The position numbers and the translations under genes are program-made. 64,000 nt of DNA from Escherichia phage fp01, in the sequence record NC_048731.1, one strand, 5' to 3'. Numbering within the stretch: position 1 is the first letter of the stretch; each line of letters begins with the position of its first letter. Under the pieces are notes generated by a model, which was given only the letters and a program-made list of their open reading frames with translations, did not search any database and had not been told where the DNA came from. This document shows positions 890 through 40,221 of the stretch, one piece after another.

Positions 890-3457
890 TTGAAAATCGC
901 AGTAGTTGATAAAGCTCTAAATAACACTCGTTACGATAAACATTTCCAGCTATACGGCGAGGAAGTTGATGTATTCCATATGTGTAACGAGAAGTTATCT
1001 GGTCGTTTGCTTAAAAAGCACATTACTATTGGAACACCAGAAAACCCATTTGATCCGAATGATTATGATTTTGTTATACTAGTAGGTGCTGAACCTTTCC
1101 TGTATTTCGCAGGTAAGAAAGGCATTGGTGACTATACTGGTAAACGTGTAGAGTATAATGGATATGCTAACTGGATTGCGAGTATCAGCCCAGCCCAGTT
1201 ACACTTTAAGCCTGAAATGAAACCAGTTTTCGATGCAACAGTAGAAAATATCCACGATATTATCAATGGTCGTGAGAAGATTGCAAAAGCTGGTGATTAC
1301 CGTCCTATTACTGACCCTGATGAGGCGGAAGAATATATCAAGATGGTGTATAATATGGTTATCGGACCTGTCGCATTCGACTCCGAAACCTCAGCACTAT
1401 ACTGTCGAGATGGTTATCTGCTAGGTGTTTCTATATCTCACCAAGAGTATCAGGGTGTATATATCGATTCTGATTGTCTCACAGAGGTTGCAGTATATTA
1501 TCTCCAGAAAATTCTGGATAGTGAAAACCACACTATTGTTTTTCACAACTTGAAGTTTGATATGCACTTTTATAAGTACCATCTGGGACTTACTTTTGAT
1601 AAAGCACATAAAGAACGCAGGCTCCATGATACTATGTTGCAGCATTATGTTCTAGATGAGCGTCGTGGTACTCATGGCTTGAAATCTCTAGCAATGAAGT
1701 ATACCGATATGGGTGACTATGACTTTGAACTAGATAAGTTCAAGGAGGATTACTGCAAAGCACATAAAATCAAGAAAGAAGATTTCACCTATGATTTAAT
1801 TCCGTTTGATATTATGTGGCCTTACGCTGCGAAAGATACTGATGCCACCCTACGTTTGCACAACTTCTTCTTACCAAAAATTGAGAAGAATGAAAAACTT
1901 TGCAGCCTGTATTATGATGTCCTAATGCCTGGTTGTGTATTTCTCCAGCGTGTTGAGGATCGTGGTGTACCTATTTCTATTGATCGTTTAAAAGAAGCAC
2001 AGTACCAGTTAACCCATAATCTGAATAAAGCTCGTGAGAAGCTGTATACTTATCCAGAAGTAGTTCAGCTAGAGAAAGATCAGAATGAAGCGTTTAACCC
2101 AAACTCTGTTAAACAACTCCGTGTTCTTCTGTTTGACTATGTTGGCTTAACTCCAACAGGTAAATTGACGGATACTGGAGCAGACTCTACAGATGCAGAA
2201 GCTCTGAACGAATTGTCTACGCAGCATCCAATTGCTAAGACTCTACTAGAGATTCGTAAGCTGACTAAGCTGATCTCTACTTACGTTGAGAAAATTCTTC
2301 TGAGTATTGATGCAGATGGTTGCATTCGTACTGGCTTCCACGAACACATGACTACTTCTGGTCGCCTGAGTTCTTCTGGTAAACTGAACCTGCAACAGTT
2401 ACCTCGTGATGAATCTATTATCAAGGGCTGTGTAGTAGCTCCTCCCGGGTATCGTGTAATCGCATGGGACTTAACAACTGCGGAAGTTTATTATGCTGCT
2501 GTTCTATCTGGCGATAGAAATATGCAACAAGTATTTATCAACATGAGAAATGAACCAGATAAATACCCGGACTTCCACTCTAACATCGCACACATGGTAT
2601 TTAAGCTCCAATGCGAACCTCGTGATGTTAAAAAGTTATTCCCAGCTCTGCGTCAAGCAGCTAAAGCAATCACCTTTGGTATTCTATATGGTTCTGGCCC
2701 AGCTAAAGTAGCTCATTCTGTTAACGAAGCTCTTCTGGAGCAGGCTGCTAAGACAGGCGAACCGTTTGTAGAATGTACGGTTGCAGATGCTAAAGAGTAT
2801 ATCGAAACTTACTTCGGTCAGTTCCCGCAGCTTAAGCGTTGGATTGATAAGTGCCACGATCAGATCAAGAATCATGGATTTATCTATAGTCACTTTGGTC
2901 GTAAGCGTCGTCTGCACAATATCCACTCCGAAGACCGTGGTGTTCAGGGTGAGGAAATCCGTTCTGGATTTAACGCAATCATTCAGTCTGCTTCTTCTGA
3001 TAGTCTCCTTTTAGGTGCTGTAGATGCAGATAATGAGATCATTTCTCTTGGCCTAGAACAAGAGATGAAGATTGTTATGCTGGTTCATGACTCCGTAGTT
3101 GCTATTGTTCGTGAGGATTTGATCGACCAATACAATGAAATCCTGATTCGTAATATTCAGAAAGACCGTGGTATCAGTATTCCTGGCTGTCCGATTGGTA
3201 TTGATTCAGATTCTGAAGCTGGAGGTTCTCGTGACTACTCTTGTGGTAAGATGAAGAAGCAGCATCCATCAATCGCTTGTATTGATGATGATGAATATAC
3301 CCGCTATGTCAAAAGTGTGTTACTTGATGCAGATTTCGAGTATAAGAAACTAGCTGCAATGGATAAAGAGCATCCAGATCACAGCAAATACAAGGATGAT
3401 AAGTTTATTGCTGTATGTAAAGATTTGGATAACGTGAGAAGGATTCTCGGTGCTTGA
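890..3457 (+). CDS. DNA polymerase, family A with 3'-5' exonuclease domain (T5 DNA polymerase-like, 855 aa)
   Basis: Exo motif 'VAFDSETS'; Pol I motif B 'RQAAKAITFGILYGSG'; motif C 'LVHDSVV'. Apparent TTG start preceded by 'AGGAG'. Size matches T5 DNA polymerase as I recall it. Confidence 0.85.
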   Translation: MKIAVVDKALNNTRYDKHFQLYGEEVDVFHMCNEKLSGRLLKKHITIGTPENPFDPNDYDFVILVGAEPFLYFAGKKGIGDYTGKRVEYNGYANWIASISPAQLHFKPEMKPVFDATVENIHDIINGREKIAKAGDYRPITDPDEAEEYIKMVYNMVIGPVAFDSETSALYCRDGYLLGVSISHQEYQGVYIDSDCLTEVAVYYLQKILDSENHTIVFHNLKFDMHFYKYHLGLTFDKAHKERRLHDTMLQHYVLDERRGTHGLKSLAMKYTDMGDYDFELDKFKEDYCKAHKIKKEDFTYDLIPFDIMWPYAAKDTDATLRLHNFFLPKIEKNEKLCSLYYDVLMPGCVFLQRVEDRGVPISIDRLKEAQYQLTHNLNKAREKLYTYPEVVQLEKDQNEAFNPNSVKQLRVLLFDYVGLTPTGKLTDTGADSTDAEALNELSTQHPIAKTLLEIRKLTKLISTYVEKILLSIDADGCIRTGFHEHMTTSGRLSSSGKLNLQQLPRDESIIKGCVVAPPGYRVIAWDLTTAEVYYAAVLSGDRNMQQVFINMRNEPDKYPDFHSNIAHMVFKLQCEPRDVKKLFPALRQAAKAITFGILYGSGPAKVAHSVNEALLEQAAKTGEPFVECTVADAKEYIETYFGQFPQLKRWIDKCHDQIKNHGFIYSHFGRKRRLHNIHSEDRGVQGEEIRSGFNAIIQSASSDSLLLGAVDADNEIISLGLEQEMKIVMLVHDSVVAIVREDLIDQYNEILIRNIQKDRGISIPGCPIGIDSDSEAGGSRDYSCGKMKKQHPSIACIDDDEYTRYVKSVLLDADFEYKKLAAMDKEHPDHSKYKDDKFIAVCKDLDNVRRILGA

Positions 3458-32502: not shown

Positions 32503-32985
32503 TTAGCCTCCAACACCGGGATTAACAGTAGCCACACACTCGTTAGAAGTAATAGAAACGGATTTACTATCCGTTACCACAACTTTATAAGTGCCAGCAT
32601 CTTCCGCAGCAGCTGTAGCTTTGTTAAAGTTAGGACCAGTAGCACCACTTAGCGGGGAACCATCTTTAGTCCAAGCATAAGTATAAGGTGCTGTACCTCC
32701 AGTAACTGTTACACCAAGATTAATTGCTGCACCAGTTTCAACTGTTAGAGTTTTAGCTAAATTTTTAGTGAAGGCTAGAGCAGGTACTGCTGGACCAGCC
32801 TTACCATAAGCCTCTACAAATTTCTTCCATACTTTGCGGTTAGTATGCGCAGATGAAAGTCCTAGTTCTCTACGCAGAAAAGCATAGCTAGGAACATATT
32901 TATGCGCAGCAACCGTAGCAAAGAAGATATGAGATTCTGGTAGTTTTTCACCAAAAATGGTCTTTAGACCACTATAATCAATCAT
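32503..32985 (-). CDS. capsid decoration protein with Ig-like domain (T5 pb10-like)
   Basis: C-terminal 'VTVTGGTAPYTYAWTKDGSPLSG...GTYKVVVTD' Ig-like repeat. Confidence 0.5.
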   Translation of the reverse strand: MIDYSGLKTIFGEKLPESHIFFATVAAHKYVPSYAFLRRELGLSSAHTNRKVWKKFVEAYGKAGPAVPALAFTKNLAKTLTVETGAAINLGVTVTGGTAPYTYAWTKDGSPLSGATGPNFNKATAAAEDAGTYKVVVTDSKSVSITSNECVATVNPGVGG

Positions 32986-34199
32986 TCTTTATCTCCCTCG
33001 GTGGAACCTTGAGGTCTACCACCTTCTTGACCGGATACGCCTGTTGCAGAACCAGCGACGTTAGCAGGAATACGAATCTTATTCATCTGCTCATCATCTA
33101 AAGGCTCAAGGTTCAGCTCTAAACGAGCTTCGTTACCAGTTATAATACCATTATTAACCAATGAGGTTAAATGTTTAGCCTCAGATTCTTTATCTGGTGT
33201 TAATGCAGCTACTTCCTTAGTATTAGGAGTAATCTTATAACCAAAAAAGAAAGTAAGAGAACTAGTCAGCTTGTTCAGCATAGGGATGATAGTCATATAA
33301 TAGAACAGTTCGATATTTGGTCGAATGTTCGCATTATTACCACCATCAAGTAGCACTTGCGGAACACCAAAGGCTAGACAGATAGATTTATTAAATCCTT
33401 CAATGTCTTCCTTAAAGTCTAGATCTTTAAAAGAGGATATTTGGGAGTACGGTTTAGCTTTCATACCACCATCTAGAATCAGGACAGAGGACTGACCAGT
33501 ACTAGGATTATAATCTAGTTGCAATTCTTCTTGTTTACGCTCACGCAATTTCTTGTTCAGGATTTCATCCGTCTCAAGAATAAGACCAATCACGGTTCCG
33601 TTATCGAGGAATTTCTCTTTAAAGTTAAGCATCTTAGAACGCTTCTCAAGAGAATCAATAACAGTAGCAACACGAGATTGTCCAGAAATTTGAGAATTTG
33701 TGCCGCACACGTAACTGTTATCCTTTATAAAGATAATCTCATCTACGCGATAGTCTATCTGATTATTAAATATAAATTTTTTGATAAACTTATTGGCATC
33801 TGCCTCTACTTGCATTAGTGCAGCAGGGACATGGTAAAGTGCTGTGCCATCCCAATAGATGTATGCACAACCTTCAAAGAGTAGGTCAGTGACTACAAGT
33901 CTACGGAATGTGCTTATATCCATGAATGGATTAGGTCGTACATTTAAGAGAGTGTCTAGAGTCTTTGTCTTGATGCCATTGGCATATGTGACAATATTAT
34001 ATTTATCTCCGACAGTATAAGAACACTCCGCCGCACTATCTATAACCATATTAGCAGTTCTATTGAGAATCTCAATTTTACTGTAGGCTTGTCCAGTGGT
34101 AAAAGGCTTACGGTTAGTGCGATGACTAACTGGTTCCATGTCTCTTATAATACGTTGACCCGGATTTAGCTTTTCAGTAATCCAGCTTTTAAAACCCAT
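32982..34199 (-). CDS. portal protein (T5 pb7-like)
   Basis: 405 aa downstream of terminase large subunit; size and position. Confidence 0.7.
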   Translation of the reverse strand: MGFKSWITEKLNPGQRIIRDMEPVSHRTNRKPFTTGQAYSKIEILNRTANMVIDSAAECSYTVGDKYNIVTYANGIKTKTLDTLLNVRPNPFMDISTFRRLVVTDLLFEGCAYIYWDGTALYHVPAALMQVEADANKFIKKFIFNNQIDYRVDEIIFIKDNSYVCGTNSQISGQSRVATVIDSLEKRSKMLNFKEKFLDNGTVIGLILETDEILNKKLRERKQEELQLDYNPSTGQSSVLILDGGMKAKPYSQISSFKDLDFKEDIEGFNKSICLAFGVPQVLLDGGNNANIRPNIELFYYMTIIPMLNKLTSSLTFFFGYKITPNTKEVAALTPDKESEAKHLTSLVNNGIITGNEARLELNLEPLDDEQMNKIRIPANVAGSATGVSGQEGGRPQGSTEGDKE

Positions 34200-34636
34200 T
34201 ATAAGAACCTTGCGAATCCTGATTTTGTTTCAGTCTTGACTTGTGTCTTTTCTTGAGGATTCTGTAATTTGTCTTTCTGCTTTTGAACCCACACTTTTTG
34301 CTTATTAGCAGAAAATAAGGGAGGTTCTTTTGTGTAAACCTTATGTAATAATTGGTGATGGTGTACACAAAGGGTAACAGTGTCTTCTACTAGCTCATGC
34401 CTGTATCGATCATAGAATGCCGTCCTATTTGAAAGGACTGTTTCTTCGTCAGTGAAATCCAGTTGGAGTTCTTTAGCAAATTTTTTAACTAGTAGAGACA
34501 CCGTATGGTAATGATGAAGCTCTAATTCTTCAGCACAACCGCAGATAGCACATTGAGAGTCTTTTTTATATTGACTTTTTATTCCGTCTCTCATAAGGGA
34601 TATAGCATCGCGTTTATATTTTACATTGCTTGCCAT
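34199..34636 (-). CDS. HNH endonuclease
   Basis: 'CAICGC...ELHHYH...LCVHHHQLLH' Cys/His HNH-type motif; likely start 'MASNVKYK' with 'GAGGAG' RBS. Confidence 0.5.
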   Translation of the reverse strand: MASNVKYKRDAISLMRDGIKSQYKKDSQCAICGCAEELELHHYHTVSLLVKKFAKELQLDFTDEETVLSNRTAFYDRYRHELVEDTVTLCVHHHQLLHKVYTKEPPLFSANKQKVWVQKQKDKLQNPQEKTQVKTETKSGFARFL

Positions 34637-34750
34637 AGTGTTCTCCTCAACTGTATGAATATAGTATACATAATCGTATCGAATTTGTAAAGGGGATTTT
34701 AAAATGCAGGAATGGGATACCAACTGAGTAGTATCCCATCCTATACTTAT

Positions 34751-36067
34751 TTATTTACCACGGGAAATAGAGTAAATTCCATAGCGCAGAGCATCACAAA
34801 GGTGAGAGTTAGCATCATGACGTGGTTTTTCACGTGATAATTTCTCTTCGCCTTCTTGGAAATCCCACTTGTAGTTCTGCAATGCATGGATTAATGAAGA
34901 GCATGAAGCGTCTACAATAATCTTACCCTGTTGGAATAGTGCTTGTAAACATGCTAATCCATCTAGGACAGATTTTTTAGCTGGAGCTGATGCAATTTCA
35001 TGTTCGTAAGCTAAGTCCTGGCGGAACTGAGCTGCCGCGGAATCAACGAAGATACGATCTACGTTATAACGATCTATACAGTGCTGAATATACGCAGCAT
35101 GCTGAGCTGTAGTTTTCTCTGCCTGCTGGTACTCTTCTAATACATAGTAAGTATCTGTATCATAATGATACTTGATAGTAAGAACTGCTGTAGGATCACG
35201 ATAACCAACGTCAATGCCAAGCAATGTTTCGAATGCTTCATCATCTTTAAAGAAGTGACGCATACCTTTAAGGTCTTTAACATGATCGATAGCATTAAAG
35301 GTATCAAAGATCTGACCTTCGAATACAGAGAAGTCAGCCTCATATTCCTGACGGAAGTAGTTTTTACTAACAGTACGACGTGCTTCTTCGATGTCATTCA
35401 GGTCAGCACGTGGATTATCACGATATGTACCATGAATAGACACCCAGTTAGGTAATGTATCATCAAATCCATAGGCATAAAACTCTTTAAACCAGTTACC
35501 ACCACGAGGAGTAGAGATAAATAGAGCCTTAGAATTAGGTTTATCTAGAGTAGGGCGCAGCTGAACCCTAAAGGCATCACCACCCACATCGGAAATTGCC
35601 GCCTCGTCAAAGATGATAAAATCATATGAACGTCCAACTGCGGAGTCCGCCTGAGCCGCAGAAGCTAGTTTAAATAGAGAACCATTAGCTAACTCAATCT
35701 CTTTATCTTTAGCATTCTCACGTTCAGTTTGCAACCCATACTTCTTAATAAGACCACGAATCTGAGACCATCCGATATTGGCCAGTGAGTAGTTAGGGGC
35801 AACTACTAGCACCTTCACATTAGGTTCCAGCAATTTTAGGAACCCAAGTGTATATGCTATAAAGGATTTGCCTACACGACGTGACACACACGCCGTTACA
35901 AAACGATGTCTAGGGTCCTCTAAAGCATTAATAATTGCTATTTGAGGACCATTAGGTGTAATACCTTCTTGCGCTAGTATTCCTGAAACCGGTAGACGAA
36001 AGAAACGTTTGTCTATTCCGAAATCAATAACATCTACTGTATTAACGTAGGGTCTTGATACTTCCAT
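34751..36067 (-). CDS. terminase large subunit
   Basis: Walker A-like 'SRRVGKSF', Walker B 'DFIIFDEAA', C-terminal RNaseH-like nuclease acidic residues; 438 aa. Confidence 0.85.
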   Translation of the reverse strand: MEVSRPYVNTVDVIDFGIDKRFFRLPVSGILAQEGITPNGPQIAIINALEDPRHRFVTACVSRRVGKSFIAYTLGFLKLLEPNVKVLVVAPNYSLANIGWSQIRGLIKKYGLQTERENAKDKEIELANGSLFKLASAAQADSAVGRSYDFIIFDEAAISDVGGDAFRVQLRPTLDKPNSKALFISTPRGGNWFKEFYAYGFDDTLPNWVSIHGTYRDNPRADLNDIEEARRTVSKNYFRQEYEADFSVFEGQIFDTFNAIDHVKDLKGMRHFFKDDEAFETLLGIDVGYRDPTAVLTIKYHYDTDTYYVLEEYQQAEKTTAQHAAYIQHCIDRYNVDRIFVDSAAAQFRQDLAYEHEIASAPAKKSVLDGLACLQALFQQGKIIVDASCSSLIHALQNYKWDFQEGEEKLSREKPRHDANSHLCDALRYGIYSISRGK

Positions 36068-36549
36068 TACTTCTTACCTCCAGTAGCTAGGGAAGTAATT
36101 AAGTCCATGTAGTTTTGATCCCCAGCTCCAGCAATAATATTATTCTGGATGTTGGTCTGATTGGCTGGAGTACGGGCTGCTGCCTTCACTTTCTCCAGTT
36201 CTACCATCATTTTCATTTCTTCCATCTTCATCTTGTGTGCCTTCCAGAGAATATCCATAATATCCTGGTCAGAACCCATGCCGGTTTCTTCTAGCTCCTC
36301 TAGTTTACGCTTGATAACTTCATCCAGAACACCAAATAAACGATCTCTGTTACGGAAACCACTCTCCATAAAAATATCATTTAAGTAGTTCTTAACTTCA
36401 CTACGATTCATAATATCTCGAAAAGCAATTTCGGACATCCCAAGACTACGTGCGGCAGAAGGCACATCGCTGCCGCACTGTAAATAAGCTTCAATCACAT
36501 CCATCCCTTCAGGGGACATAAGATCTGGTACTAATACATCATTTGCCAT
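36067..36549 (-). CDS. terminase small subunit (putative)
   Basis: 160 aa immediately upstream of and coupled to the large subunit gene. Confidence 0.5.
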
Positions 36550-36559
36550 ATTTCCTCCT

Positions 36560-38317
36560 TTAGGTAAGGCGTTGAACTGTTACTCTTAATCTAGGTAGGA
36601 AAACCGCACTACCTAAACTTACGTGCATAACTACCCCTAACTCTACATTTCCATTTCCTAGATTTTTAACTGTATATGTGAAACTATTTCTACTTAGTGC
36701 ATTATTAGGTGTGTATCTAAATGCAGATGTAGTATGAAATGGTACTAAGTAACCTACAGGTAATGTTAAAATCTGGTGGAATATTGCATCTCCATTACTA
36801 TAGCTATAAGCCCTTCTTCCCTGCACCTGAAATACACCGTTATTCCATGTATTAGCCGGAACACCAGCACAATTAAGATTACCAGATATAACTTCAGTAG
36901 TAAGAATAACGGTAGCATTACCTCCTGGAATTCCTAGTCCAATAGTAGATAGAGCCACGTATCTGTCTCCAGTTCCGGGGTAGTAAGGGGTAATATCATC
37001 CCCCATGTAAGAACTACCAACATTTCCACTAAAAAGTCTCAGAGGAACTGAAGAAGGCCCCCAAACAACACCATGTTCATTACCAATAGTATTATTACTT
37101 GAGTTTACGTACCATTGCTTACCCGCTCCGAATTTGTAAATACTAATTTGAGACTTAGCCCCTCCATAGTCTACGGGAGACCATAAACTTCCATTACTAG
37201 AGCCTACAAGTTCGCACCTTGCAGTGGTATCTCCAAAGGCTCCAGTGTACGCTGCGTTATTTCCGACGTATTCCATATCTGGCCTATAGCCTAAGTTACC
37301 AAAAGCATTCTGGTTAATAAACTTATATCCAGTATTCGGTAAACTAACCCCTTTTATAGTAAAATTAGAGGGGGAGATAAGAATATCTGAACCAGTAAAA
37401 GGATTACCAGAGATACCCATATTACCATTAGAATACCTCAGATTAAGTACATACCAAATAACCTTAGTAGGAGTTATGTTATACCAATCCTGTAATATTG
37501 TAGCATTACCAGATTGATTAGCTAAATTAGTTGTAGAACCCCTACAAACAAATCTGTTACCTCCATCGTGGTACATAGTATTTACGCTACCAGGAAGACC
37601 TTGTCTTACCCCGCCATACCCACGTATGTTAGAGCTACAAACATAGAACCAATCGTGTCCTCTGTGTGCTGATCCTAAAGGAGACATCCATCCCGGATCC
37701 CAGTAATATGGATTATTACCATCTATAGGTACTGTACTACTATTAGTAGGAAAACCCAGCTGTGCAAAAGCTTCTGCAACAGTAATACCTACTGGAGCTC
37801 CTGCACCTGGCCTAACTATACCATGATAAGTACTATGTAGGGTGGTCCCACCAGTACCATTTCTAGAGATAGATTCTTCATGCCCTATAGATGGGTTATA
37901 GTTATATGTGCCAGATGCCAGGCTATTACCAAATGCAAATCCACTAGTTTGGGAAACGCTAGCAAAAGATCTAAAAGGATCTGCTTGAGTGGCAACTATA
38001 GTTTGACCTACTTTACTCTGAGTACCATTAAGAAAAGCCCTATGAGTACCATTAATCTCAATAGCAGTTAGTATAACTCTACCTGGGTCATTGGATTTAA
38101 TATTTATTATGTCAGAGGGCATCTGACATACAAAAAACCCATTTCCAGCATTTCCTAACCCGGCCTCATAAGTACCATCAACTAGGACAAATGGCATATC
38201 ACTATGAAAAATACTATTGGCATTTGGACTATAGTGACGATTAATGTCACCCCCAGATTCAGTATTTAAAGATAGTACGGTCTTACCATCGCTATATTTT
38301 CCAGCGAAAAAACCCAT
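36560..38317 (-). CDS. receptor-binding tail protein (T5 pb5/Oad-like)
   Basis: 585 aa Gly/Asn/Ser-rich beta-type protein at the end of the late module, divergently paired with an Llp-like lipoprotein gene as in T5; 'AGGAG' RBS. Confidence 0.55.
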
Positions 38318-38402
38318 ATAATCTCCTATTATAAAAATGTATTTGCTTTCATCCCTCTATTTTGCTATAATAGATTCATAAATTAGAAATGGAGAGATAA
38401 AT

Positions 38403-38669
38403 ATGAAAAAGTTTGTGATTGCACTAGTTGCCGCAGTTATGTTATCTGGTTGTGCACCTGCTCCCAAACCATTTTGTACTGGATTTGTAAAATCTTTTGG
38501 TGGTGCGGGAGAAGAACATTACGGTCTCAAGATTCAAAAAGTTCGTATTAAGGGAGATCGCTTCCCAGTAGTACAGCTCCGTACTAAGTTTGGGTGGTGG
38601 GATCTCAGTCAGTTTGACCTTAAATATGGTGATTGTAAATTTAAACTAGAGCAATCTAACTACCTGTAA
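38403..38669 (+). CDS. llp: superinfection-exclusion lipoprotein (Llp-like)
   Basis: Signal peptide with lipobox 'LSGC'; small size; divergent from the receptor-binding protein gene. Confidence 0.6.
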   Translation: MKKFVIALVAAVMLSGCAPAPKPFCTGFVKSFGGAGEEHYGLKIQKVRIKGDRFPVVQLRTKFGWWDLSQFDLKYGDCKFKLEQSNYL

Positions 38670-38844: not shown

Positions 38845-38973
38845 ATGTCAAATAAAAGAAAGAGCAGACGCGGAGAAGTGTATGATAGCTGGATAAATAG
38901 TTTTGGGTTCGGAACTATCTTATTCTTTATTTTCGTAGGTTTTTGGTTAGCAGCTATGGCGGGGTGGATTTAA
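38845..38973 (+). CDS. small membrane protein (42 aa)
   Basis: 'MSNKRKSRRGEVYDSWINSFGFGTILFFIFVGFWLAAMAGWI'; stop overlaps next start (TAATG). Confidence 0.3.
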   Translation: MSNKRKSRRGEVYDSWINSFGFGTILFFIFVGFWLAAMAGWI

Positions 38974-39077
38974 TGGGAGTAGTAATTATTGTTTTACTAA
39001 TTATTGTAATTCTAGGGCAATGTGTCTTGGATAACCACTTAGCTCGTATTGAACGTAAGCTGCGGGAATATAAATAA
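38973..39077 (+). CDS. small membrane protein (34 aa)
   Basis: 'MGVVIIVLLIIVILGQCVLDNHLARIERKLREYK'; start/stop overlaps with neighbours. Confidence 0.3.
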   Translation: MGVVIIVLLIIVILGQCVLDNHLARIERKLREYK

Positions 39078-39322
39078 TGTTTAGTATTATAATTGCTTTT
39101 ATTATCGGGATACTCGCGGGAGTTTTCGGGACGACTGCGGCAATCAACAAGCATCGTAAATATATTGCGGGAGTGACGCGGGAGATTGCGGAAAGGGAGC
39201 GGAAGTTTGACGAGAAACGTGCGGAGTTTGAGCGAGAGTGGTCGGATGGATCTCGGGCGTCGCGGAAGAGATTCCGTGAGTTCAGGCCAGAACACAGGTT
39301 TGATGACCCTTCTATGCGCTAA
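39077..39322 (+). CDS. small membrane protein with charged C-terminal tail (81 aa)
   Basis: N-terminal TM helix 'MFSIIIAFIIGILAGVFG', Arg/Glu-rich tail. Confidence 0.4.
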   Translation: MFSIIIAFIIGILAGVFGTTAAINKHRKYIAGVTREIAERERKFDEKRAEFEREWSDGSRASRKRFREFRPEHRFDDPSMR

Positions 39323-39436: not shown

Positions 39437-39471
39437 CATCCTGTAACCATTTTAATTACAGGATGAAACTA
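39437..39471. terminator. strong hairpin (13-bp arms) downstream of dmp-like gene
   Basis: 'TTTCATCCTGTAA-CCATTTTAA-TTACAGGATGAAA' perfect inverted repeat. Confidence 0.45.
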
Positions 39472-39486
39472 TGTCAACTTTAATTA

Positions 39487-40221
39487 TTACGCAACTTTTA
39501 ATTTCTCAATATATTGTTGCGGGCTGCAACTATATTCTGCGCGTTCTTCCTCGGTCATACTTTCCCAACATAATTTCAAACGATCGGCTAGGAACTGATA
39601 ATCATTATCATCCTCGAGGGATTCATCAATAAAGGTTCCGCCTATCAATGCCACGCCGATTGATAGAATATCATTAACGGCTTGCGCATCTAGCGTTTTA
39701 AATCCATATGACGCAGCCGCTGATAATACACCTTTATGATCATCAATCATTGTAAAATCAGCGTTCGGATATAGCTGTTTAAATAATTCAAAGTAATAAC
39801 TTTTGTATACTGCGTCCTTGCTGTGGTATATCTCGCTAACCTTATCAGCCTCAAAATATTTATGCAGTGTATCGCGGGAAAATACACGGATATTACTATC
39901 ACCACGCCCGCGCAATCCTTGTTTGCGCAAATAATAATAATCCGACTTGCTCATCAGCCGAGCGGTGCAAATAATGTTTAAAGTATTTGAGTCATTCATA
40001 CATTGGCGCATATATTCCACCAAAGGTAATAAGGTGTCTTGCATTATTAAATCATGTTTACACGCTTCATTTTTATACTTATTTAAATTTAAATTCCCGT
40101 CGCTATCAAAGCAAGGCGCTACACGATGGAAAGAATTAATGATAGTGCCGTCCAGATCCCAAATCATGACGCGGGAAATATGCGGGAAATTACGGGAAAT
40201 ATTCATAATAGCTTTATTCAT
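39487..40221 (-). CDS. dmp: HAD-superfamily 5'-deoxyribonucleotidase (T5 Dmp-like)
   Basis: HAD motif I 'IWDLDGTI'; 244 aa; sits downstream of the A1-like gene in the GC-richer island. Confidence 0.6.
   Translation of the reverse strand: MNKAIMNISRNFPHISRVMIWDLDGTIINSFHRVAPCFDSDGNLNLNKYKNEACKHDLIMQDTLLPLVEYMRQCMNDSNTLNIICTARLMSKSDYYYLRKQGLRGRGDSNIRVFSRDTLHKYFEADKVSEIYHSKDAVYKSYYFELFKQLYPNADFTMIDDHKGVLSAAASYGFKTLDAQAVNDILSIGVALIGGTFIDESLEDDNDYQFLADRLKLCWESMTEEERAEYSCSPQQYIEKLKVA

Follow-up and report, generated by a model that had tools for sequence, protein, structure and literature searches.

The divergent gene pair at positions 36560 to 38669 of the window (the whole stretch analysed here, 64,000 nucleotides of Escherichia phage fp01, NC_048731.1) is, with high confidence, a BF23-type BtuB host-recognition and lytic-conversion module of a T5-like phage, in which the lipoprotein Llp would block BtuB by way of the periplasm. 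The source phage is a Tequintavirus, and modules of this kind have been on record since 2006. Near-identical proteins of other phages lead us to infer that the receptor-binding protein (RBP) allele of fp01 binds BtuB, which differs from the receptor named for it in the literature.

Organization of the locus

The open reading frame list confirmed both genes at the predicted coordinates and their divergent transcription. The features of the locus are as follows.

36560 to 38317, minus strand: RBP gene (hrs/oad homologue, pb5 family, AKFV33/fp01-type allele), an ATG-started open reading frame of 585 amino acids for a receptor-binding tail-tip protein
38318 to 38402: 85-bp intergenic region between the divergent RBP gene and llp
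38403 to 38669, plus strand: llp, an open reading frame for the 88-amino acid precursor of a receptor-blocking (lytic-conversion, superinfection-exclusion) lipoprotein, assigned by homology
36067 to 36549, minus strand: terS (phrog_3802), directly downstream of the RBP gene
34751 to 36067, minus strand: terL (Pfam Terminase_6N/6C), after terS
38323 to 38327, minus strand: Shine-Dalgarno sequence AGGAG of the RBP gene, 5 nt upstream of the ATG, read from the sequence
38343 to 38371, plus strand: llp promoter, with −35 element TTGCTT (38343 to 38348), a 17-nt spacer and extended −10 element TGcTATAAT (38363 to 38371)
38391 to 38396, plus strand: Shine-Dalgarno sequence GGAGAG of llp, 6 nt upstream of the ATG, read from the sequence
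38403 to 38450, plus strand: Llp signal peptide
38442 to 38453, plus strand: Llp lipobox LSGC

The RBP gene opens the minus-strand run RBP-terS-terL, and its start region (the reverse complement of 38315 to 38327) reads AGGAGATTATATG. Placement of the RBP gene directly upstream of terS and terL and divergent from llp is common to T5, AKFV33, DT57C, Cit2, TrudiRoth, and IrisVonRoten. The intergenic region is about 98% identical to those of BF23, DT57C, and AKFV33 (131 aligned bases). Within it, the llp promoter aligns with the −35 and −10 elements marked for this gene in the BF23 record (DQ097178), both hexamers being identical, and in the AKFV33 record the site is labelled a T5-consensus promoter. 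We located the promoter through alignment to the annotated BF23 signals. A generic sigma-70 promoter scan of the window had missed it because TTGCTT agrees with TTGACA at only three of six positions.

Over a span of 24 kb, the remaining genome reaches only about 92 to 94% identity with the complete phage records that match it best. A 174-amino acid open reading frame at 34199 to 34723 was considered as an HNH endonuclease for its CxxC and HH motifs and was dropped, as Pfam returned no match for it.

A receptor-binding protein of the pb5/Hrs family

By its sequence, the 585-residue protein is a member of the pb5/Hrs family of receptor-binding tail-tip proteins of T5-like phages, and it matches fp01 gp108 (YP_009841487.1) exactly. 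The PHROG profile phrog_4815, “receptor binding tail protein,” aligns with residues 1 to 585 (E = 4e-273) and is also matched by T5 pb5 and BF23 Hrs. This end-to-end match, together with full-length matches in 523 phage records, shows that the gene is not a chance open reading frame. Searches of the Pfam and NCBIfam profiles gave no model for the RBP, leaving PHROGs as the only profile source. BLASTP aligned the protein end to end with T5 pb5 (E = 2e-52; 29 to 33% identity), and a PDB search returned T5 pb5 structures as its sole solved relatives (8B14, chain 8B14_B, and 8A8C, chain 8A8C_B; E = 1e-47).

The original prediction had noted that the protein is shorter than T5 pb5, and the lengths are indeed 585 and 640 residues. 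It had taken this as a hint of a receptor other than FhuA, a conclusion that stands on homology. However, length alone is not evidence, since the gap of 55 residues is scattered over more than 15 small indels. A full-length alignment with pb5, combined with a requirement for FhuA, had been named as grounds for refutation. Such an alignment exists, but its identity is too low to bear on specificity. The proposed comparison with the RBPs of H8 and BF23 gave identities of 27.9% and 67 to 68%, respectively, beside the values given above for T5.

Other relatives are closer. The RBP is 98.3% identical to AKFV33 orf158 (ten amino acid substitutions), 96.2 to 96.4% identical to the RBPs of IrisVonRoten (Bas32) and DaisyDussoix (Bas31), 73% to DT57C Hrs, 71% to the TrudiRoth RBP, and 56% to the RBP of the BtuB-dependent Yersinia phage phiR2-01. 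Identity among the 523 records falls into discrete bands, with 103 records at 90% or more, 293 at 60 to 80%, and the others below 60%. By pairwise identity, the protein clusters with RBPs of BtuB-requiring phages (BF23, DT57C, EPS7, SPC35, and Bas26 to Bas34), and separately from the clusters of FhuA and FepA users; within the BtuB set, the window RBP included, pairwise values range from 66 to 98%, against 31 to 35% for comparisons with T5. Phages with this allele have reported hosts among Escherichia, Salmonella, Shigella, and Citrobacter.

Divergence is found in the part of the protein predicted to meet the receptor. The receptor-binding region of T5 pb5 (T5 residues 89 to 305) is homologous to residues 88 to 280 of the window RBP, and over residues 101 to 290 identity drops to 49% with BF23, 55% with TrudiRoth, and 68% with DT57C. 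Where the protein aligns with T5 loops L1, L2, and L4, both sequence and length depart from those of BF23 and TrudiRoth. The diverged loops, which are candidate receptor contacts, lie at about residues 109 to 119, 165 to 176, and 530 to 539.

A near-invariant lipoprotein of the Llp family

The llp product begins with a lipoprotein signal peptide, MKKFVIALVAAVMLSG, followed by the predicted lipidated cysteine, and carries the lipobox L14-S15-G16-C17 (Pfam LPAM_1, 23.9 bits versus a cut-off of 20). The mature protein has 72 residues, with Cys25 and Cys78 as mature residues 9 and 62. Under the “+2 rule” of E. coli, Ala at position +2 directs a lipoprotein to the outer membrane. Because residue +2 of Llp is Ala rather than Asp, the protein is predicted to be sorted there.

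Llp is identical to SPC35 Llp (ADW80124.1) and differs from BF23 Llp at one residue (87 of 88 identical) and from DT57C Llp at two (86 of 88). Full-length matches in 399 phage records, together with a match to phrog_1119, “Cor superinfection exclusion protein” (E = 1.7e-26; residues 1 to 82 on profile positions 1 to 78), show that it is not a chance open reading frame. The RBP and Llp genes travel together at nearly 1:1, for an Llp of this family occurs in 400 phage records and an RBP with 60% or more identity to that of the window in 396.

The relationship with T5 Llp is more distant (26 to 30% identity; 30% over 67 amino acids, E = 2e-4), and T5 Llp, like the window Llp, matches phrog_1119 along its full length (E = 1e-19). 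The two proteins have in common the lipobox cysteine and a C-terminal cysteine, and each has a second cysteine 8 to 10 residues past the lipidated one. In the alignment, Cys78 is invariant with T5, whereas the N-proximal cysteine is offset by five columns from the T5 cysteine, beside a four-residue gap. The disulphide of T5 Llp, Cys11-Cys58, ties together the termini of the mature protein (PMC9586334). A PDB sequence search (phmmer) with the window Llp returned noise only (E ≥ 0.2), T5 Llp being too distant for this method.

The same PHROG family includes the Cor lipoproteins of T1, phi80, N15, and lambdoid phages, which are likewise small outer-membrane proteins that exclude phages at a TonB-dependent transporter. 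Cor proteins act on FhuA, in contrast to the predicted BtuB target of the window Llp. Classification of Llp as a Cor equivalog (NCBIfam NF047972) was rejected; the score of 16.1 bits (cut-off 31) covers residues 1 to 34 only, and the protein is related to Cor without being an equivalog.

BtuB as the probable receptor

The prototype for a BtuB-binding and BtuB-blocking pair is hrs-llp of BF23 (DQ097178; Mondigler et al. 2006), which has the same architecture and an identical llp promoter. Its RBP differs in length (595 residues), and most of the ten additional residues fall close to the part that aligns with T5 loop L4. DT57C and DT571/2 (Golomidova et al. 2016) resemble the window in having a diverged hrs beside an llp nearly equal to that of BF23, with a recombination junction between the two genes. 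The DT57C RBP has loop-type sequences at residues 100 to 180 that resemble the window RBP, although it has 586 residues and the overall identity is that given above. The closest counterparts are AKFV33 (orf158/orf159), Bas31, and Bas32, in which the locus DNA is 96.7% identical, the RBP has 585 residues, and Llp is 98 to 99% identical, with no difference in gene order or promoter.

Because the receptor-binding stretch has diverged from those of BF23, TrudiRoth, and DT57C, our assignment of BtuB draws mainly on the RBPs of Bas31 and Bas32 (96% identity). The entries for these two phages in BASEL Table S5 give BtuB as the terminal receptor on E. coli K-12, and both are described as BtuB users elsewhere (PMC11619597). 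Other members of the cluster agree. BtuB use by DT57C was shown by resistance mutations that inactivate btuB and by Llp expression (Golomidova et al. 2016, PMC4728585), the btuB dependence of TrudiRoth was complemented (BASEL), and SPC35 is BtuB-dependent according to citing literature. Expression of DT57C Llp inhibited DT57C and BF23 but not T5. Receptor blocking has been shown for the Llp proteins of both BF23 and DT57C, against the BF23 and DT57C RBP alleles (PMC4728585). The original prediction that the lipoprotein acts on the same receptor as the RBP is supported by its near identity to BF23 Llp and its identity to SPC35 Llp. The predicted “masking,” in contrast, is unlikely to be steric; the example of T5 Llp suggests an action from the periplasmic side.

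A different receptor has been published for this protein. In the fp01 paper, a trRosetta model of gp108 was docked on FhuA with favourable predicted affinity (PMC9961651), and in the Cit2 paper the RBP is described as 96.9% identical to the “T5” RBP (PMC12980165). The window RBP is a genuine full-length pb5 homologue, and its locus resembles pb5 (oad)-llp of T5 in PHROG families, position next to terS and terL, divergent orientation, and a lipobox plus what may be a matching cysteine pair. However, T5 uses FhuA, its pb5 is the longer protein, and membership of a T5 pb5-type FhuA module, considered through close identity to both pb5 and T5 Llp, was rejected at the 29 to 33% and 26 to 30% found.

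The FhuA case for fp01 rests on 95.6% identity to “T5_ev219” (PMC9961651), which is a T5-like isolate and not T5 and carries a BF23-type Llp 97.7% identical to that of the window. The same paper reports 31% identity to real pb5, and its text contains neither BtuB nor Llp. The docking was run on FhuA only and therefore does not discriminate between receptors. We measured the Cit2 RBP at 30% identity to pb5 of NC_005859 and 96% to the window RBP, and the value of 96.9% was not reproducible with the cited T5 record. In addition, the adjacent Llp is of the BtuB-blocking type, and the BASEL receptor entries for Bas31 and Bas32 name BtuB. Thus, the FhuA assignments in both papers, which are in silico only, look wrong, and we regard binding to FhuA in the manner of T5 as very unlikely.

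This distinction has practical consequences. Phage fp01 and its relatives are put forward for biocontrol as polyvalent agents, and the members of a cocktail are chosen to use different receptors. Yet the only published receptor statements for the fp01 RBP and the 96%-identical Cit2 RBP name FhuA, by way of docking or a mislabelled comparison. If BtuB is the true receptor, mutations in btuB would be the route to resistance, and these phages would duplicate the receptor use of the many other T5-like phages that depend on BtuB.

The original prediction had offered BtuB or FepA in place of FhuA. Of these, BtuB is favoured by the RBP clade and by Llp identity. FepA is among the three known receptors of T5-like phages and is used by H8 and probably by S124. 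However, the low identity to the H8 RBP, the legend of BASEL Fig. S3B, which describes RBP phylogenies split into BtuB, FepA, and FhuA clusters, and a fepA knock-out (fepA::kan) that had no phenotype for any BASEL phage, Bas31 and Bas32 included, make the chance that the fp01 RBP binds FepA negligible.

It might also be proposed that this allele recognizes BtuB together with a second receptor, or a different, unrecognized outer-membrane protein. The divergence from BF23 at residues 101 to 290 and in the segments aligned to L1, L2, and L4, along with the four host genera reported for phages with this allele, would fit such a proposal, and the AKFV33 authors also suggested a possible other receptor. 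Nonetheless, we consider it improbable. The terminal receptor listed for Bas31 and Bas32 on K-12 is BtuB, and DT57C, whose loops are of the same type, lost infection on btuB inactivation (PMC4728585). The cognate Llp is a BtuB blocker, and blocking an unused receptor would be of no benefit to a phage. Moreover, BtuB is conserved across these genera, and it is mainly the lateral fibres that set host range in the T5-like group (PMC4728585).

A proposed mechanism of BtuB binding and closure

The FhuA-pb5 structures and the FhuA-Llp crystal structure provide a template mechanism in which T5 Llp acts from the periplasmic side (van den Berg et al. 2022, PMC9586334). In the same paper, AF2 is reported to model both free Llp and the contact loops of pb5 inaccurately. 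BF23 Hrs can substitute for pb5, as cited in PMC10644984. A search of the PDB for a BtuB-Llp or BtuB-Hrs structure found none.

On this template, we propose that the straight central tail fibre carries the RBP at its tip. The lateral fibres would bind O-antigen first. Irreversible binding of the RBP to BtuB, the vitamin B12 transporter of the outer membrane, would follow and would trigger opening of the tail and DNA ejection. The strong sigma-70 promoter with its extended −10 element would give early expression of llp. Its product would receive a lipid at Cys17 and be delivered to the outer membrane. There, by analogy with T5 Llp on FhuA, it would bind the BtuB plug from the periplasmic side and lock the extracellular loops of BtuB in a conformation closed to the RBP. 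This allosteric block would prevent superinfection and would keep progeny from being lost on cell debris.

Allelic mosaicism at the RBP gene

Relative to BF23 and DT57C, only the RBP reading frame has diverged, and both flanks are at least 96% identical. DNA identity to these two phages in 100-nt sliding windows places the boundaries of the diverged cassette approximately as follows.

36550 to 36600: terS-side boundary, where identity changes from 0.98–1.00 to 0.70–0.76
38240 to 38320: llp-side boundary, inside the first RBP codons, where identity changes from about 0.73 to 0.96–0.97

The same llp-side junction was described in DT57C by Golomidova et al. 2016 (PMC4728585).

Boundaries at both ends of the RBP frame imply separate histories for the RBP and llp, and the Cit2 paper speaks of “decoupling” (PMC12980165). 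One possibility is that a swap of the RBP cassette has left a mismatched module, in which the BF23-type Llp no longer protects against its own RBP. However, DT57C, which combines a diverged Hrs with a BF23-type Llp, has been tested, and there Llp still inhibited both DT57C and BF23 (PMC4728585). If Llp acts allosterically from the periplasm like T5 Llp, its effect should be independent of how the RBP docks. Furthermore, about 180 records keep an Llp at least 90% identical to that of the window beside several RBP alleles, which argues for retained function. We therefore hold out little prospect for a mismatched module, and prefer one in which Llp still blocks the receptor of its own RBP.

A more specific idea, which we advance only tentatively and consider rather doubtful, is that RBPs of the fp01/AKFV33 type dock BtuB via contact loops substantially unlike those of BF23 Hrs, whereas the near-invariant Llp blocks all alleles, closure of BtuB being independent of docking mode. 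If this were true, the loop set might account for efficient use of the BtuB orthologues of Escherichia, Salmonella, Shigella, and Citrobacter.

The window RBP allele is also a mosaic in itself, because its residues 321 to 400 are 85 to 90% identical to BF23 and only 62 to 65% identical to DT57C.

Locus layout and receptor-binding protein family

Two proteins, a 585-aa receptor-binding protein (RBP) and an 88-aa lipoprotein (Llp), are encoded by genes that are transcribed divergently and separated by 85 bp, at the right end of a T5-like genome's late region. The original prediction placed both reading frames correctly.

Features of the locus
32982-34199, portal (Pfam)
34751-36067, large terminase (Pfam)
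36067-36549, small terminase (PHROG)
36560..38317, minus strand, RBP gene (585-aa ORF, ATG start)
38343-38371, plus strand, llp promoter (TTGCTT at 38343-38348, 17-nt spacer, TGcTATAAT to 38371), annotated in the BF23 record
38391-38396, plus strand, llp Shine-Dalgarno GGAGAG (from the sequence)
38403..38669, plus strand, llp (88-aa ORF)

An exact-sequence look-up identifies the RBP as gp108 from Escherichia phage fp01 (YP_009841487.1/QIE02394.1). It is covered end to end by PHROG 4815 (“receptor binding tail protein”; E=4e-273), a profile also matched by T5 pb5 and BF23 Hrs; only two solved structures were found among its relatives by PDB sequence search, both of T5 pb5. Relatives in phage records fall into discrete identity bands. 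The band at 90% or more holds 103 records (HMD-P4 98.8%, AKFV33 98.3%, DaisyDussoix [Bas31] 96.4%, IrisVonRoten [Bas32] 96.2%, the last two from the BASEL collection), and that at 60-80% holds 293, including BF23, DT57C, TrudiRoth, and other Epseptimaviruses. The phiR2-01 protein is 56% identical, and the remaining relatives (T5 at 29%, H8 at 28%, and Klebsiella phages) lie below 35%. In a common alignment, identity is 73% to DT57C, 71% to TrudiRoth, 68% to BF23, and 33% to T5 pb5.

Several database entries for this locus carry unexpected labels. In MT653146.1 (8sent1748) and KY677846.1 (phiLLS), the 585-aa RBP gene is called “superinfection exclusion protein,” a label that seems to have shifted over from the adjoining llp. 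Three short unannotated records of 3-14 kb (OR846838.1, OR844785.1, OR845102.1) carry the locus at ~91.5% DNA and 96.4% RBP identity; one is titled “Listeria phage LM 4-11-1,” and Campylobacter entries also occur in the organism tally. Mislabelling or contamination by T5-like sequences is the probable explanation. RBP and Llp sequences that are identical or nearly so also lie on ~97-110 kb contigs of Salmonella enterica and Shigella isolate assemblies (e.g., EBS3195830.1, EKE5412513.1); whole T5-like phage genomes are therefore carried within bacterial genome projects, as a carrier state or as contamination.

BtuB as the predicted receptor

Every reference at 56-98% RBP identity whose receptor is known uses BtuB. 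BF23 is the classical BtuB user (PMC10644984), and phiR2-01 is another (PMC8624392). BtuB use was demonstrated for DT57C through btuB-inactivating resistance mutations (PMC4728585) and for TrudiRoth through knock-out and complementation (PMC8594841). Bas31 and Bas32 are entered with BtuB under “host receptors on E. coli K-12” in Table S5 of the BASEL collection, an assignment repeated in PMC11619597. Knocking out fepA affected none of the BASEL phages (PMC8594841).

It had been proposed that an RBP shorter than pb5 might target BtuB or FepA rather than FhuA, and that the lipoprotein would mask the same receptor. Sequence relationships support this interpretation, with the predicted receptor resolving to BtuB. 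The pb5 length of about 640 aa given with that proposal agrees with both T5 records (640 aa). The 55-residue difference is scattered across >15 small indels; the shorter protein is a symptom of membership in another clade and in itself no evidence.

A BtuB-blocking type of lipoprotein

The N-terminus of Llp (MKKFVIALVAAVMLSG preceding the C) forms a lipoprotein signal peptide with the lipobox LSGC, and Pfam LPAM_1 scores above its cut-off. The mature protein has 72 aa, beginning with the lipidated Cys and then Ala, a residue that implies outer-membrane sorting. Cys25 and Cys78 are two further cysteines whose placement recalls that of Cys11-Cys58, the pair joined by a disulphide in T5 Llp. Exact-sequence look-up found the same protein in Salmonella phage SPC35 and many other Tequintaviruses. 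It matches BF23 Llp at 87/88 positions (sole change I44V) and DT57C Llp at 86/88, falling to 69% for the Epseptimavirus type of TrudiRoth and 26-30% for T5 Llp. PHROG 1119 (“Cor superinfection exclusion protein”) is matched over the full length, and T5 Llp matches it too; against the NCBIfam Cor equivalog model, Llp scores below the curated threshold. Cloned DT57C llp inhibits DT57C and BF23 and is without effect on T5 (Golomidova et al., PMC4728585). Among phage records, the Llp family numbers 400 and RBPs at least 60% identical to this one number 396, so the two genes co-occur essentially 1:1.

The account with the best support is the conventional one. Judging from its relatives, the RBP would sit at the central fibre's tip and bind BtuB irreversibly, leading to DNA ejection. 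Llp would be made early, from a strong promoter, and be located in the outer membrane's inner leaflet. There it may bind the BtuB plug from the periplasm, as T5 Llp binds that of FhuA (PMC9586334), and may thereby push the extracellular loops into an RBP-excluding conformation. This mechanism is an analogy within one PHROG family whose two members share just 26-30% identity; a PDB search found no BtuB-Hrs or BtuB-Llp structure.

Published FhuA assignments

Two papers assign FhuA in silico, one to fp01 gp108 (36560-38317; PMC9961651) and the other to the Cit2 RBP (1294-3051 of the Cit2 locus; PMC12980165). For gp108, the fp01 genome paper argues that T5 uses FhuA, that gp108 shares 95.6% identity with the “T5_ev219” RBP, and that a trRosetta model docks on FhuA. 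Against genuine pb5 that paper gives just 31% identity, and it contains no mention of BtuB or Llp (PMC9961651). The isolate called T5_ev219 is T5-like; its Llp shares 97.7% identity with that of the window, and thus the isolate also carries a BF23-type module. For the Cit2 RBP, the published figure is 96.9% identity to the “T5” RBP (PMC12980165). The Cit2 RBP is 30% identical to pb5 of the cited T5 record as measured here, compared with 96% to the window RBP, and the Cit2 paper's own Llp tree groups Cit2 with BtuB phages (PMC12980165). The Llp beside the RBP is, moreover, of the BtuB-blocking type. In the FhuA arguments, what stands for T5 seems to be a T5-like isolate (T5_ev219) or a mislabelled sequence, and both assignments are most likely reference-choice errors.

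Modules of this type have reportedly been known since 2006 (Mondigler et al.), and this RBP allele has already been sequenced in >100 phages, some listed as BtuB users. What is added, beyond one open question on the contact region, is a probable correction of the in-silico receptor for fp01 and Cit2.

An exchangeable RBP cassette

The 85-bp intergenic region is ~98% identical across BF23, DT57C, and AKFV33, and the RBP gene has its own Shine-Dalgarno (AGGAG, 5 nt 5' of the ATG). In sliding-window comparisons with BF23 and DT57C, DNA identity stays at 0.96 or more on either side of the RBP gene and falls to 0.4-0.85 exactly within its reading frame, with edges near 36550-36600 and 38240-38320. 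This restriction indicates an exchangeable RBP cassette between conserved flanks, with llp fixed, the arrangement described for DT57C in 2016 (PMC4728585). The allele itself also has a mosaic structure: its residues 100-180 are 78-80% identical to DT57C versus 42-68% to BF23, while residues 321-400 are 85-90% identical to BF23 versus 62-65% to DT57C.

Residues 101-290 are the most diverged part relative to BF23 (49% identity). By an approximate alignment at ~30% identity, they correspond to the pb5 region bearing the FhuA-inserting loops L1 and L2; T5 Gln115 and Phe170 align with residues ~109-119 and 165-176, and T5 loop L4 (T5 570-590) with 530-539, which also varies in length. A modest open question is how alleles of the RBP, half-diverged in this presumptive contact region, can all share BtuB and all be blocked by one conserved Llp.

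Neighboring genes

Over 24 kb, the window shares 92-94% identity with its best-matching complete Tequintavirus records, headed by Shigella phage SSP1 and Salmonella phage L6jm. Beyond llp lie genes for small membrane proteins, identified by PHROG matches as homologues of T5.159, T5.160, and T5.162, and the T5 5'-deoxyribonucleotidase gene has a homologue on the opposite strand. At 39051-39075, ~187 nt are missing relative to T5, DT57C, and BF23 (gaps of 18 and 169 nt). The absent segment encodes T5.161 (BF23 Orf3), a 64-aa putative membrane protein, and the T5.160 homologue (38973-39077) directly abuts that of T5.162 (39077-39322).

A near-consensus sigma-70 promoter-like site (39449-39477, minus strand; TTGACA, 17 nt, TAAAAT; 11/12 matches) is located just downstream of where a dmp-like gene (39487-40221, minus strand) stops. 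It faces the convergent genes for small membrane proteins, close to the start of the terminal repeat in T5 and DT57C. Between portal and large terminase, a 174-aa ORF (34199-34723, minus strand) with CxxC and HH-rich motifs has zero Pfam matches. AKFV33 instead has two ORFs of other sizes there (orf154 and the YomD-like orf155), and this spot seems variable.
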